Part shown: one piece after another, positions 33,001-36,000 of the stretch | Layout of the letters: each line of letters starts with the position of its first letter | Position numbering within the stretch: the first letter of the stretch is position 1 | DNA from: an uncultured Spirochaetota bacterium | GTDB lineage: Bacteria > Spirochaetota > UBA4802 > UBA5550 | DNA length: 64,000 nt | Assembly: GCA_963827275.1 (NCBI GenBank) | Contig: CAWHAA010000010.1 | Coordinates: 224,001-288,000 of the forward strand | Direction of reading: 5' to 3' | Position numbers: made by a program

Positions 33001-36000
33001 TGCGCCCCATCCCCTCGGTGAACAGGGTGTCGCCGGTGAATATGTGGCCCGGCGCGTACAGGCACACGCTCCCCTCGGAATGGCCCGGCGTATGTATTAT
33101 TTTTAGAGAGCAGCCGCCGAACGTGATGACGTCGCCCTCCTTTACGGTCATTTGCGGCGGGGGCGAGGTCTTGCCTCCCATGGTGCGGGAGAGGAACCTG
33201 CTCGTGAGGCTCCCGAGCTTGCGGACGTCGGTCTCGTGCAGGAGAAGCGGCGCACCGGTCTTTTTCATCCAGTAGTCGTTGCCCGACGTGTGGTCGAAAT
33301 GCCCGTGGGTATTGATGATATATTTTACCGTGACATTGTGCTTCTTTATGGCGCTCTCGATAAGCTGGTGGTCCCCTGCGGGATCGATGAGCACCGCCTC
33401 CCTGGTCGACTCGTCCGCCACCAGGTAGCAGAACACGGCCATCTGCGTTACAAGTATCTGTTCGATTATCATACTTCAAACCTCTTCATGGTCAACTCCC
33501 CCCTGTCCCCCGTAGGGGGCACGCGGGATCACGACTTTTCTAATAACTTGTGCTTGATTGCAACAAGAACTGAATCAATATTTTTCATGATTTTATCATT
33601 ATCAAATCGCATTGTTTGTATCCCGAGACTTTTCAAAAAATCATCGCGGTATTCATCGTAGTCTTTTCTTTCTTTATGGACGTTTCCATCCACCTCAATC
33701 GCCAGGAGCTTTTCATCACAATAAAAATCAAGTATATAGCGATATATCGGATGCTGGCATCTGAATTTATATCCCTCAAGCTGCTTGCTCTTCAACCGCT
33801 CCCATAATAAACGCTCACCGGGAGTTAAATTATTGCGCATATCTCTCGCCAGTTGAATAACATAGTCAGGTGTTTTAATGCCTTGATTCATATTCTTGTT
33901 ACAATCAGCATCCTGATTCGTGCCCCCTGCGGCGATCAGGGGGGAATTCAGCCCCTTGATCCGTGCCCCCTATGGGGGACAGGGGGAAATTAAGGTGAGC
34001 GGGATACAGGCGCTCAGCCCACTTCATATATCATGAGCCGCTCTTCCACCCCCGGCCAGGACGGTATCCTCCGTGAGCATATCATCCGCAGCGACTCCAG
34101 CTCCCGGAAAAAATCTTCGTCCGCCGTCGATCCCATGGCGCCGACGAAAACAAGCGTCCTGCCGCCGGCCTCCCGGTAGCGGCGCAGTGCATTTACCGCC
34201 ATCGGGTCATATATCGGGGGCCAGCAGAGGAAGAGCGCCCGTTCCGGGTAGCGTCCTGCCATCGACTCGTCGCCCTCGTGGACCACGGACCAGGTGTCTT
34301 CGAACCACCGGTTTGCCTCCTGCCACTCCCACGGCCGCTCGTCGCCGGGCGGCCGGTTGTCGTAAGCGATGATGTCGGCGCCGGCGTCGCGGAGGCACAT
34401 GGCCCAGTACCCGTTCCCGGCGCCGATCTCCACCAGCGGCGAGCGGCCCGCTATCTCCTCAACCACCTGTATCGTGGGGACAGAAAACGCGTACCTGCAG
34501 ATTAACTCGGCCCTCCTCTCGTTGAGGAGGGCGCCCGGCACGCCGCCGTCCCGCCCTGCGTTCGCGGCAATGAGGGCGAGCACCTCTTCAAGGTACGGGT
34601 TCCTGATGCGCCATTCCCCGTCGGGCGGGACGTACCCCGTTATATCGGTTTCATTATCGGCTCCGGGCGTTGCGCTGCCGGTTTCATGCTGCGCAATCCC
34701 GTAGTCATCGCCGTAGCGGCCCCTGACCATCCCGGCGAGCAGACCCGGGTCCGCGACGATGGCGTCCTTTTCCTTCCTGGTCAGCCCCTGGATGAGGCGC
34801 TCGACCCGCAGCGCATCGCCCCTTCCCCCGGAAAGCCTCCAGCAGCGGGCCATCCGGACCGGCTTGAAGCTCCTGGTGTACCTGGCGCCTGCCGCGCCGC
34901 TCCGGTGCTCTTCATACCGCCGCGCAGGGTCGTCGGTCGAGCCGGTGTAATACGACCCGTTTTCGCATTCGAGCATGTACACGTACAGGTGCCGGGGATG
35001 TATGTTATCGCGGTTCTGGCTCATTGCCGGCAATCGGGACGAAACCGGGTTTCATTTTTTATTCTTTAGCGCATGCATGCTTTCGAAGAGCCAGCGCGGG
35101 TACGTGATCTCCGCATCCGCCGTCTTCTGCGCAAGCAGGAAGATATTGCTCCCGCGGTTCCGGCTGGTCAATAACTGTATGAGTCCCCGATAGCGCTTGA
35201 CGGAAAATCCTTCGATGTTGATCGATCCGGTCACCTTCGTATAGAGCTTCACCACGCGGAACCCCAGGCTCTCGACCAGGTCACGCAGCTCGGCCGGAGT
35301 GTACTCGCGGTTATGGCGCCCGTACGCGCCGTACCCGGAATAATGGTCATGCACGTTCCTGCCGAGGACCAGCTTGAGCACGTTCTCGTAACGGAGCACG
35401 TTGGGGGTGGTGATGATCATGTACCCTCCTTTGTCGAGGAGGCGGTTTATCTGTACAAGTGGATGGACCGGGTCGACCGTAAGGTGCTCGATGATCTCGC
35501 AGAAAAGGACCAGGTCAAAGGACTTCGGCTTGAAGGGAAACTCCTCCTTTTCGACGTTGAAGTGCCTGAAGGAAATGTCATGCCGCACGCCGTATTTCTC
35601 GCTCTGAAGGACTTCATGTGTTGCCACCTTCGCCGTATCCCCGAAATAGTTGGCCATCTCCAGGGCGCAATTGTAATATTTTTTTATAAGCAGACTCATG
35701 AAATAGGGGCTTGCCCCCAGCTCCAGGACCCTGCTTTTTTCGTTTATATTATCAGGGAAAAGCTCCAGGGTTTTCAAAAAACGGTCCAGGGAGAAATTCA
35801 GGTAATTGTTTTGTTCCTCGGGATTGAGCCCGGGCAGCCTGAAGCTCGCCAGGTACTCCATGATCGATCCAACCTTCGCTTTGTCATACTTAACGCCCAC
35901 GCAGTTTGCCTCCATGGTGACGCAGGGTCACCCCGTTCTCGAATATAAATCAATACGGAATTGAAAAGGAAAATTTGCAAGTTATTTTCACACTCCCGGG

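Follow-up and report, generated by a model that had tools for sequence, protein, structure and literature searches.

Several described systems resemble parts of the locus analysed here, in which a single DUF559 gene from an uncultured Spirochaetota bacterium lies between inverted G/C repeats, within a 64,000-nucleotide stretch of contig CAWHAA010000010.1 (C10) that is referred to as the window throughout. REP/REPIN repeats and their RAYT (a Y1/HUH transposase) also combine a single small gene with inverted short hairpin repeats, and their repeat is likewise scattered between genes as singlets, inverted pairs and arrays, with no target duplication. RAYTs are usually single-copy, whereas the gene here is multi-copy and decaying, and the repeat has an extra third run that gives it a triplex layout. 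The enzyme is a PD-(D/E)xK hydrolase (DUF559) and not an HUH tyrosine transposase, so that its chemistry cannot equal that of a RAYT. TMECO/BoxC and other G/C-rich repeats of the triplex type were recognised decades ago. TMECO and BoxC share with the repeat described here the order of pyrimidine stem, loop, purine stem, short loop and mirrored third run, the location between genes, often as inverted pairs, and a patchy distribution among close relatives. In contrast, stems in the present motif consist purely of C5-6/G5-6 runs and do not reach the 9 nt of TMECO stems, and a triplex is predicted here from the layout. TMECO and BoxC have been classed as intrastrand triplex motifs (Holder et al., 2015, PMC4666352; Hoyne et al. 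as cited there), and the discussion of Holder et al. reports neither a linked gene nor a mobility function for TMECO.

The catalytic domain of the homing endonuclease I-Bth0305I (EDxHD/Vsr-like, PDB 3R3P) has the same fold as the DUF559 protein by predicted model, and I-Bth0305I is itself a selfish nuclease, spread by cut-and-repair. According to Taylor et al. (2011; cited in PMC9403480 and PMC3424549), I-Bth0305I has its home in phage genes, within group I introns or inteins, whereas the DUF559 element comes without intron or intein, has repeats as ends and forms miniature derivatives; the gene is free-standing and intergenic, has no Rfam intron match and occupies no unique homing site in a conserved gene. 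Subterminal hairpins and the lack of target duplication are also found in IS200/IS605, and terminal inverted repeats with non-autonomous deletion derivatives in MITEs, but the DUF559 element has neither a TnpA nor a DDE transposase. MITEs normally show target duplications, while none was seen for the DUF559 unit at the copies and pairs read or at an insertion in MetH. Rickettsia palindromic elements, short palindromic repeats able to occupy protein-coding genes in frame, carry no gene. DUF559 cassettes likewise occur in frame in LeuRS, MetH, MmeI and RecO of other phyla, but the unit does carry a gene, and all copies checked in the window genome are intergenic. A literature search that did not cover subscription journals found no paper linking DUF559 to these repeats or to mobility.

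Results

Ends and boundaries of the unit

The end motif has the form CCCCCCTGTCCCCC-NNN-GGGGGCACG, and occurs inverted behind the stop codon of the gene and as two tandem units ahead of its start. The parts of the unit are as follows, in window coordinates:

33490..33496, minus strand: short conserved extension beyond the downstream end, reading GTTGAC(C) in the gene's direction and common to 4-5 of 7 aligned copies
33497..33524, minus strand: downstream end, an inverted motif copy 5 nt beyond the stop codon, CGTGCCCCC-TAC-GGGGG-ACA-GGGGGG-AG on the gene strand (motif hit)
33529..33891, minus strand: intact DUF559 gene of 120 aa (open frame and Pfam DUF559 match), the sole intact copy among the genome's nine
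33919..33948, minus strand: upstream proximal motif unit, degenerate with 3 mismatches, ~28 nt before the ATG (sequence and motif hit)
33962..33990, minus strand: upstream distal motif unit and true outer left end, composed of C-run, TGT, C5, ATA, G5 and CACG (sequence, alignment and motif hit)

A first-pass annotation had placed the gene between two inverted ends and the left limit of the element at 33960. Its downstream end, CGTGCCCCCTACGGGGGACAGGGGGGAG at 33497-33524 and 5 nt behind the stop, was found as described, but the upstream end departs from an exact inverse: the proximal unit and the distal unit (TTTCCCCCTGTCCCCCATAGGGGGCACGG) form a 43-nt tandem, and the good distal match at 33962-33990 sets the element boundary near 33990, ~30 nt further out. 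The extension outside the downstream end runs on as GTTGACATGATCATG in other copies. Its -35-like hexamer faces the next gene, and a promoter scan predicted TTGACC-16-TATGAT with 10/12 matches.

The ends had been described as plain hairpins. A hairpin is indeed present, with a predicted DNA folding energy of -5.7 to -11.7 kcal/mol for the hairpin portion of the motif and -11.7 kcal/mol for the downstream end, but a triplex-type arrangement of C-run, linker, C-run, loop and G-run fits better. The motif layout, C6-TGT-C5-NNN-G5 and its complement, is that of the TMECO/BoxC class, and with its 3-nt loop it can, as predicted from the layout, fold as a hairpin with a third strand. When the whole unit was folded as single-stranded DNA, the distal upstream end was predicted to pair with the downstream end as a panhandle.

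The DUF559 protein

The gene had been annotated at 103 aa; the first 17 residues of the 120-aa frame are kept in 30 relatives, which favours the longer start. The assignment to DUF559 (PF04480) was borne out at E=3.6e-34 and 117.4 bits against a cut-off of 20.6, with the protein covering profile positions 4-108 of 109. The conserved acidic/His core of a PD-(D/E)xK-type site is present, with a putative catalytic role taken from the literature on the fold: in an alignment of 30 DUF559 relatives D55, E66 and D68 were among the invariant residues, and H72 was nearly invariant (at least 90%). The dN/dS values of the window gene against intact congener copies were 0.33, 0.15 and 0.07, which indicates purifying selection on the gene inside the unit.

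A sequence search matched the protein to PDB 3HRL (E=5e-19). Foldseek, given an AlphaFold model with a pLDDT of 87, returned the catalytic domain of I-Bth0305I (3R3P) at rank 2-3 (E=1.2e-4, probability 1.0, TM 0.75 on the target, 24% identity). Sequence profile searches with the DUF559 protein did not reach 3R3P; judged by the predicted model, it is the closest characterised structure and points to an EDxHD fold. Resemblance to Vsr itself was slight: the Vsr family PF03852 gave no match at E<=0.01 in the Pfam search, the Vsr structures 1CW0 and 1VSR were not found at E<=10 by phmmer and profile search, and the Foldseek matches to them were weak (1VSR, E=0.11; 1CW0, probability 0.87). Neither neighbour of the gene is a cytosine-5 methyltransferase of the kind that partners Vsr; one is a GIY-YIG protein that has a weak methyltransferase-like match (E=0.0084), the other an MBL-fold hydrolase, and congeners without the DUF559 gene retain the two. 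DUF559 is a very large family (at least 556 confirmed relatives in one scan); no function is known for it, nor is any nuclease activity known for DUF559 proteins of this kind.

Copies, miniatures and dispersed motifs in the genome

Self-blastn and a whole-genome protein search recovered the unit at the same nine places, and the same coordinates, as the first-pass annotation, with one intact gene and eight copies carrying stops or truncations. In a MAFFT alignment the similarity among copies begins at the upstream motif and ends just past the downstream motif, and the comparison indicates that the unit was copied as a whole and that its copies decayed to pseudogenes. Four further features of the family lie in the window:

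32429..32624, strand not assigned: tandem array of 79-nt units x2.5, each unit being one end motif and a 46-nt spacer
32578..32812, minus strand: broken copy H, the final ~50 codons of a DUF559 gene containing a stop, and end motifs (C10:256626-256775, 60% identity, one TGA)
37340..37668, minus strand: truncated copy G, the 3' two thirds of the gene and end motifs, at 90% nt identity to the intact copy
39640..39827, strand not assigned: gene-less inverted pair retaining a few codons from each end of the gene, with the same internal deletion at C10:471306-471460

Copy H is on the far side of the MBL-fold gene from the intact copy. Two miniature subfamilies were seen, each with identical interiors at two separate loci, and one of them keeps both gene termini around an identical deletion; internal-deletion miniatures of the unit form and multiply. 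Both kinds of tandem array reported before were recovered, the second consisting of 43/44-nt units at C10:471188-471345 and C10:471451-471609.

The dispersed motif proved real, with counts that replace the 42 given earlier: 40 exact copies, 57 with at most one mismatch and 78 with at most three, while a reversed-pattern control scored zero across the order sample of 101 genomes. It had also been called intergenic throughout. Of the 57 copies, 25 fall in stop-free frames of at least 150 aa, a test that is blurred by frames running upstream of real starts; ten of these were read, and all ten lie within the first 3-25 codons, i.e. ahead of the real start. All close motif pairs share one polarity, with the C6/G6 runs outward. 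As in REP/RAYT systems, a gene lies between inverted copies of a repeat found dispersed elsewhere in the genome, but the gene between the repeats is DUF559 and not a Y1 HUH transposase. The genome has six PF01797 (Y1) genes, none of them within 50 kb of a motif copy.

The same sites in congeners

Between the GIY-YIG and MBL-fold genes, an intact DUF559 gene was found in 0/14 congeners: four have 49-90 bp without the motif, two have gene-less inverted pairs and most of the others have other G/C repeats. The closest relative, G009, has at this site the upstream end and ~20 codons of the gene, after which a VapB/PIN (vapBC) pair occupies the space between the ends, and it carries an intact DUF559 copy (87% aa) at the position of copy H. 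In two congeners the site of copy B is short intergenic DNA lacking the motif. At the site of copy C one congener has a solo motif and another a gene-less pair, and the window genome has the cassette beside that motif. The right flank of copy D is rearranged in relatives. These comparisons show that orthologous sites differ in whether they carry the unit.

Target-site duplications were seen neither at the copies or gene-less pairs read nor between the filled and empty sites of the window copy and copies B and C. With only 84-88% identity even to the closest relative, intergenic DNA could not be aligned and no boundary fixed; the earlier caveat that no duplication could be defined held at every site compared, as did the lack of an exact boundary. 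Contigs from four runs of four metagenome studies covering window 32600-34900 all carried the element and gave no empty allele, although contigs of this kind cannot show absence. Joints in these contigs had sides of 25-34 letters and matched other motif loci, not empty alleles, and a 20-nt pattern from the start of the MBL gene, scanned against metagenome contigs, hit one unrelated AT-rich contig only.

Packaging of the gene within the order

Among the 30 best loci in the order, a forward motif within 200 nt upstream was found at 28/30, an inverted motif within 100 nt downstream at 19/30 and both at 17/30. The wrong orientation occurred at five loci upstream and at two downstream, and the other 57.8 kb of these 30 loci held seven motifs. 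Across 101 genomes of the order, the 29 with a gene of the subfamily had a median of 59 generic motif hits (24/29 with at least 10), against a median of 1.5 in the 72 without it (18/72 with at least 10).

Some genomes depart from this association. G011 has 44 exact motif copies and no PF04480 hit; G001 and G066 (64 and 25 motif copies) have only distant DUF559 genes with no adjoining motif; and G082 has 170 motif copies and ~85 rather uniform gene-less pairs but no gene of that end type, with four of seven pairs read still matching the first ~22 codons of the gene. These motif-rich genomes argue against a strict tie between gene and repeat. Switches of end type are frequent along the protein tree (seven changes are needed for the TAAAT type, and three loci have unlike ends), so that recognition, if any, would not be strictly sequence-specific. 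The protein tree also departs from host taxonomy and groups a protein from the same genus with those of another family.

Packaging across phyla

The cross-phylum set comprised 80 loci, 65 of them with full flanks. A first strict C5/C5/G5 pattern gave a motif almost confined to Spirochaetota loci, and generic inverted-repeat and triplex detectors were used instead. An inverted repeat scoring at least 14 between the flanks was found at 36/65 loci, compared with 0/58 shifted windows and 2/65 mismatched locus pairs. Triplex-type motifs were found upstream at 39/65, downstream at 41/65 and on both sides at 30/65 loci, against 2/58 and 4/58 in control windows; about 25/65 loci had no flanking repeat by these detectors. 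The flank statistics that the first-pass annotation gave for other genomes were reproduced under these stricter controls. The geometry is fixed, with the repeat 30-50 nt ahead of the ATG and 3-22 nt past the stop, and the link spans spirochaetes, proteobacteria, cyanobacteria, Bacteroidota and Chloroflexota. These figures support a packaging of gene plus ends that is far commoner at DUF559 relatives than in control windows and that spans phyla. The TMECO pattern as published also matches many of the DUF559 flanks in this set.

In other phyla, in-frame DUF559 cassettes were found inside LeuRS, MetH, an MmeI-type enzyme and RecO. The MetH cassette of a gammaproteobacterium adds a net 471 bp and is absent from two relatives at 89-91% nt identity; comparison with these two empty relatives gave no clean duplication, with ~20 and 10 nt unaligned at the junctions. 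In E. coli the relative is ycjD (42% identical), which occupies one fixed locus in 3377/5426 genomes, is not multi-copy and has a TMECO ~170 nt downstream; at a single locus, it offers no insertion polymorphism. Plasmid records with the gene numbered 21/72,556 (E<=1e-15) and phage records 1/50,697 (E<=1e-10), which rules out plasmids and phages as its main home.

Discussion

The locus had been read as a mini-element. What stands of this is that gene and inverted ends form a discrete repeat family that has moved, as supported by the nine copies, the recurring miniatures, the site differences among 14 congeners and the enrichment of the packaging; the DUF559 protein is a candidate for the enzyme that moves it. 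I propose a selfish nuclease-plus-repeat element that would spread by break-and-copy, a reading with an even chance of being right. The locus would be one intact copy of this small element, with a DUF559 nuclease (PD-(D/E)xK, Vsr/homing-endonuclease-like) as its sole gene and inverted G/C repeats as its ends. The nuclease would nick or cut at or near the repeats, and host repair would copy the element from a filled repeat pair to another repeat-bearing or microhomologous site, by a homing-like route and not by transposase chemistry. Such a route would account for the absent target duplication, the insertions beside older repeats and the tandem arrays.

Several observations sit awkwardly with break-and-copy, among them the lack of a target duplication or boundary, the motif-rich genomes without the gene, the vapBC cargo, the switching of end types, the fixed ycjD, the presence of the element in the contigs of all four metagenome studies and the ~25/65 cross-phylum loci at which the detectors gave no flanking repeat. 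That no nuclease activity is known for DUF559 proteins of this kind also counts against it.

Some of these would suit MITE- or REPIN-like units moved in trans by an unlinked enzyme (Y1/RAYT-type or other), with DUF559 as cargo, be it a retention/addiction nuclease or a defence gene. Strand transfer is beyond a PD-(D/E)xK hydrolase acting alone, and a hydrolytic nuclease cannot join DNA. The motif load of G011, G001, G066 and G082 without a cognate gene, the uniform gene-less pairs of G082, which look like a recent burst in a genome with no intact gene of that end type, the vapBC pair between the same ends in G009 and the six Y1 genes of the window genome all favour mobilisation in trans. I nevertheless consider it unlikely, if worth keeping in mind: all six Y1 genes lie more than 50 kb from any motif copy, the miniatures derive from the DUF559 unit by internal deletion, and it is one gene family that sits between such repeats across phyla at a fixed distance from start and stop. 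The purifying selection on the gene inside the unit also counts against it, and the discussion of Holder et al. (2015, PMC4666352) states that remnants of a transposase or integrase were not found near TMECO sites.

Selection of that strength is also a point in favour of a DUF559 that would benefit the host by resolving or repairing fold-back or triplex structures, or in a Vsr-type repair or defence role, with the repeats as regulatory or binding sites or as a pile-up, and the extra copies as ordinary duplications. The single copy in many genomes, the fixed ycjD of E. coli and the co-occurrence of the gene with repeat load agree with this, as does the report that TMECO repeats destabilise genomes (Holder et al., 2015, PMC4666352). 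However, eight of nine copies are broken in the window genome, sites differ among congeners, protein tree and host taxonomy disagree, and in-frame cassettes inside essential genes are missing from close relatives, all of which makes a host function improbable. Finally, the first-pass annotation had cautioned that the downstream hairpins may be plain terminators. A G/C-rich hairpin 5 nt past the stop would suit a transcription terminator or mRNA stabiliser in an incidentally inverted arrangement, but no T-run follows it, a terminator scan was empty at both ends and there was no Rfam match; the same motif stands upstream of the gene in fixed orientation, inverted pairs recur without any gene, and the third C/G run, which a terminator could do without, is conserved. 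The hairpins were thus rejected as terminators, and hardly any weight is left to this reading.

Returning to the selfish nuclease-plus-repeat element, a wider version may be put forward tentatively, and I regard it as somewhat more apt to fail than to hold: bacterial G/C-rich intrastrand-triplex repeats, including TMECO/BoxC, would be the ends and miniature leftovers of an unrecognised, phylum-spanning mobile element whose sole gene is a DUF559 nuclease, which would cut the folded repeats for host repair to copy and which could live in frame in essential genes.

The packaging of DUF559 in hairpin repeats may tie together a family of enzymes and a class of repeats for which no function is known. 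Their tight, oriented physical association opens both to laboratory tests that need a single small protein and a handful of oligonucleotides. Should the nuclease drive copying, the unit would be a mobile element without a transposase and a natural source of compact structure- or repeat-specific nucleases. If the phylum-spanning reading is true, DUF559 would gain a function and the triplex repeats an origin.

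The DUF559 gene and its ends

A Pfam search placed the 120-aa protein in DUF559 (E=3.6e-34), and no other family was convincing. The gene has a GIY-YIG protein gene on one side and an MBL-fold hydrolase gene on the other, both on its own strand, and two 43-nt tandem units of a triplex-type repeat (C6-TGT-C5-NNN-G5, hereafter the motif) stand upstream of it.

Features of the element (window positions)
33497-33524: downstream end, CGTGCCCCC-TAC-GGGGG-ACA-GGGGGG-AG, beginning 5 nt past the stop
33529-33891, minus strand: intact DUF559 gene, open 120-aa frame
33919-33948: upstream motif unit, degenerate
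33962-33990: upstream motif unit, good; on the gene strand a C-run, TGT, C5, ATA, G5, CACG

The first-pass annotation had named the family correctly and started the gene at a 103-aa frame; the 120-aa start was preferred, since residues 1-17 are conserved among 30 relatives. As the upstream units reach 33990, the whole unit is ~0.50 kb long and extends ~30 nt further than had been proposed, owing to the good distal unit at 33962-33990, and the upstream end sequence first quoted resembles the actual one without being identical. Single-stranded DNA folding gave a hairpin at each end and a panhandle for the whole unit, and an Rfam search of the element returned no match.

The element's outer right edge (33468-33495, minus strand) carries a -35-like TTGACC and, 16 nt on, a TATGAT overlapping the MBL gene start; the pair makes 10/12 promoter matches. 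Since TTGAC is common to other copies of the element, the right end may carry a predicted outward-facing half promoter.

In 30 relatives of the protein, D55, E66 and D68 were invariant and H72 nearly so. In the searchable literature DUF559 figures only as a PD-(D/E)xK family by prediction, placed in one group with Vsr and I-Bth0305I (PMC3424549, PMC1189080). The only PDB entry reached by sequence was 3HRL, a DUF559 protein of Neisseria that is uncharacterised. With an AlphaFold model (pLDDT 87), 3HRL came first in the order of Foldseek matches, followed by the homing endonuclease I-Bth0305I (catalytic domain; E=1.2e-4, probability 1.0), whose fold the model resembles; the match to Vsr was weak.

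Copies and miniatures within the genome

By self-blastn and by protein search in six frames, nine DUF559 gene copies came to light, one intact and eight with stops or truncations, at the places that had been listed. When all copies were aligned with 200-nt flanks, similarity set in at the upstream motif and ended just past the downstream motif; of the 7 copies keeping the downstream end, 4-5 have GTTGACATGATCATG in common beyond it. The 25-nt motif core occurred 40 times exactly, 57 times with ≤1 mismatch and 78 times with ≤3; across the 57 copies the stems were invariant and the loop triplets of 17 kinds, and polarity was identical in all close pairs, the C6/G6 runs facing outward. Tandem arrays reported earlier were borne out, the repeat period being 79 nt in one kind and 43/44 nt in the other. 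The motif had also been said to lie always between genes: 25 of the 57 copies fell inside stop-free frames of ≥150 aa, and the claim held in all 10 of these 25 that were read, the motif lying within the first 3-25 codons, just before the real start.

Inverted motif pairs without the gene were found with one common interior (C1:259290-259575 and C4:267197-267483; prefixes are contigs) and with a second (C10:263622-263824 and C10:471306-471460), which retains the gene's first and last codons around one identical deletion. The copies and gene-less pairs have the pattern of an autonomous element with non-autonomous derivatives.

A 21-23-nt insert, CTTCGACA(A/G)GCTCAG..., was seen within the upstream motif stem of two broken copies (B and E) and of congeners (C10:468780-468830, equal to ~2480-2530 of locus L058; C4:728861-728900; L002:30-80; upstream at L028 and L050). 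Because it recurs elsewhere, the insert would seem to be a further, still shorter repeat lodged within the motif. Motif copies also stood directly before the start codon of three paralogous genes whose products begin MDPKQPVILGYD... (C4:93530-93554, C8:72582-72606, C11:15698-15722).

Distribution within the order

Allowing ≤1 mismatch, the motif was present in 23 of 101 genomes of the order, patchily within the genus (0 to 64 copies) and with 170 copies in another genus, while a reversed-pattern control gave zero in all 101. A DUF559 relative was found in 67/101 genomes. Counts for the closer subfamily are stated without a significance test, because related genomes are not independent.

Generic motif (C5-N(2-6)-C5-N(3-4)-G5) by presence of the subfamily gene (E≤1e-40)
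With the gene (n=29): median 59 matches; ≥10 matches in 24/29
Without the gene (n=72): median 1.5 matches; ≥10 matches in 18/72

For the motif-rich exceptions, 14 of 20 loci were read, six weak fragments being left out. One genome (G011) had 44 exact motifs and no PF04480 match, and two others (G001, 64 motifs; G066, 25) had only distant DUF559 genes, motif-free beside them; G089 (46 motifs) did have genes with matching ends. G082 (170 motifs) had one flanked gene with another end type, and 4/7 of its gene-less pairs still match the gene's first ~22 codons, so the miniatures descend from a gene-bearing unit.

Among the order's 30 best loci, this genome and four congeners included, a forward motif lay ≤200 nt upstream in 28, an inverted motif ≤100 nt downstream in 19, and both in 17; wrong-orientation motifs numbered 5 upstream and 2 downstream, and the rest of these loci (57.8 kb) held 7. 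The upstream motif ended ~30-50 nt from the ATG in 21 of the 28, and the downstream motif began 3-22 nt past the stop. The linker varied by locus (TGT, TAAAT, AAA, GA) and clustered only partly on the protein tree (12 changes; least possible 6, shuffled mean 16), three loci had unlike ends, and the protein tree was at odds with host taxonomy.

The same sites in congeners

The genes flanking the element adjoin each other in 14 congeners. Four of these (G002, G013, G008, G003) have a motif-free spacer of 49-90 bp, and two (G010, G001) a gene-less inverted motif pair. In most others the spacer holds other G/C repeats; those of G004, G011, G014 and G015 (loci L003, L007, L009, L011) belong to other fold-back families, some of a TMECO-like CCCTCTCC...GGAGAGGG...GGGTGAGG type, TMECO being a triplex-type repeat of E. 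coli. Since different fold-back repeats occupy the same spacer, it is a hot spot where repeats of several kinds settle.

In the closest relative (G009, 84-88% nt identity), a VapB antitoxin and PIN-domain pair replaces the interior of the element: the upstream end and ~20 DUF559 codons precede the pair, and a downstream-end remnant follows it. The upstream GIY-YIG gene has lost its stop and reads into the repeat (L002:700-1540). Across the MBL gene from this site G009 keeps an intact copy (87% aa), of which the genome studied has only a fragment in that position. The site of copy B is a short, motif-free intergenic stretch in G007 and G016. At the site of copy C, G016 has a solo motif where the genome studied has a second right-hand motif, and G004 has a gene-less pair; in the genome studied, the cassette adjoins that second motif. 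These comparisons gave no target duplication or exact end, because intergenic DNA at such divergence does not align.

Packaging across phyla

A profile scan with one genome per species confirmed at least 556 relatives among at least 599 stretches returned, of which the best 80, from at least 8 phyla, were read; flanks were complete in 65, and the other 15 were set aside because theirs were too short. The triplex detector looked for a pyrimidine stem, loop, purine stem and mirrored third run.

Flanks of the 65 loci, with controls
Inverted ungapped match between flanks, score ≥14: 36/65; 0/58 windows shifted 600 nt outward, 2/65 mismatched locus pairs
Direct match, score ≥14: 36/65; control not applicable
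Triplex-type motif upstream: 39/65; control 2/58
Triplex-type motif downstream: 41/65; control 4/58
Triplex-type motif on both sides: 30/65; control not applicable

Direct matches were as common as inverted ones because the motifs are palindromic and often arrayed. At these 65 loci, drawn from the best 80 of at least 556, many matched flank segments conform to the TMECO pattern as published by Holder et al. (2015, PMC4666352). In E. coli K-12, ycjD is 42% identical; a 2026 paper places ycjD in the sapF-fabI gap of E. coli lineages without the eef operon (PMC12817139). The stop codon of ycjD lies within a degenerate C-rich stem (locus L057), a complete TMECO follows ~170 nt downstream, and a partial duplicate of its 3' end lies in between (L057:4205-4240, 4300-4360). 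Plasmid pAQ6 of Picosynechococcus PCC 7002, a culturable and genetically tractable host, carries a DUF559 gene within an array of three triplex-type motif kinds (L193:190-990), whose units are the same on both sides and direct, not inverted; a PIN-domain gene adjoins. Both ycjD and pAQ6 show the same gene-repeat association.

In the cross-phylum set, certain DUF559 cassettes with their repeats are embedded in frame in genes of the host, namely leucyl-tRNA synthetase (two), methionine synthase MetH, an MmeI-type restriction-modification enzyme and RecO (L167:1-3159, L147:1-2808, L127:1-3237, L141:781-2043), and there the repeats are translated and stop-free. In Stagnimonas aquatica the cassette lengthens MetH by a net 471 bp (157 codons), and two relatives (89-91% nt) have none at that position; comparison with them revealed no clean duplication at the junctions, and one genome flagged as unpublished underlies none of the claims made here.

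How the element may spread

The mechanism of movement is still inference. Nuclease and repeats could quite plausibly spread the element by breakage and copying: the nuclease would nick or cut at the repeats, in folded or duplex form, and the host, through recombination or replication repair, would copy the element from a filled repeat pair to another site that bears a repeat or has microhomology. Such a route fits the protein's resemblance to homing endonucleases in fold, the missing target duplication, the cassette's insertion next to an older motif (copy C site) and the repeat arrays, as well as the fact that a hydrolase is incapable of strand transfer. Break-and-copy spread gives no account of how repeats reach virgin sites, and is weakened by motif-rich genomes without the gene, by the vapBC cargo in G009 and by end types that switch often. 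That another enzyme moves the unit in trans and DUF559 is mere cargo is possible, if doubtful; six Y1 transposase genes (IS200/RAYT-like, PF01797) are present (C5:601300, C10:43359, C9:82135, C4:515137, C1:83512, C4:639930), no motif was found within 50 kb of any of them, and Holder et al. (2015, PMC4666352) report that they found neither transposase nor integrase remnants near TMECO sites.

The gene is under selection, with dN/dS of 0.33, 0.15 and ~0.07 in comparisons of intact copies; the element as a whole is copied, decays and gives rise to miniatures, and orthologous sites have it in some genomes and lack it in others. A domesticated structure-processing or repair nuclease seems improbable, and terminators or chance are hardly credible, a terminator scan of both element ends having found none.

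The feature is real, and its first-pass description was largely right. DUF559 is 14-fold enriched among predicted inversion targets in a table of one study (PMC9881135), which would fit genes bracketed by inverted repeats. I found no link of the gene to the repeats described here in the searchable literature. The gene-repeat association is well supported and apparently undescribed, and this packaging is ancient and widespread.
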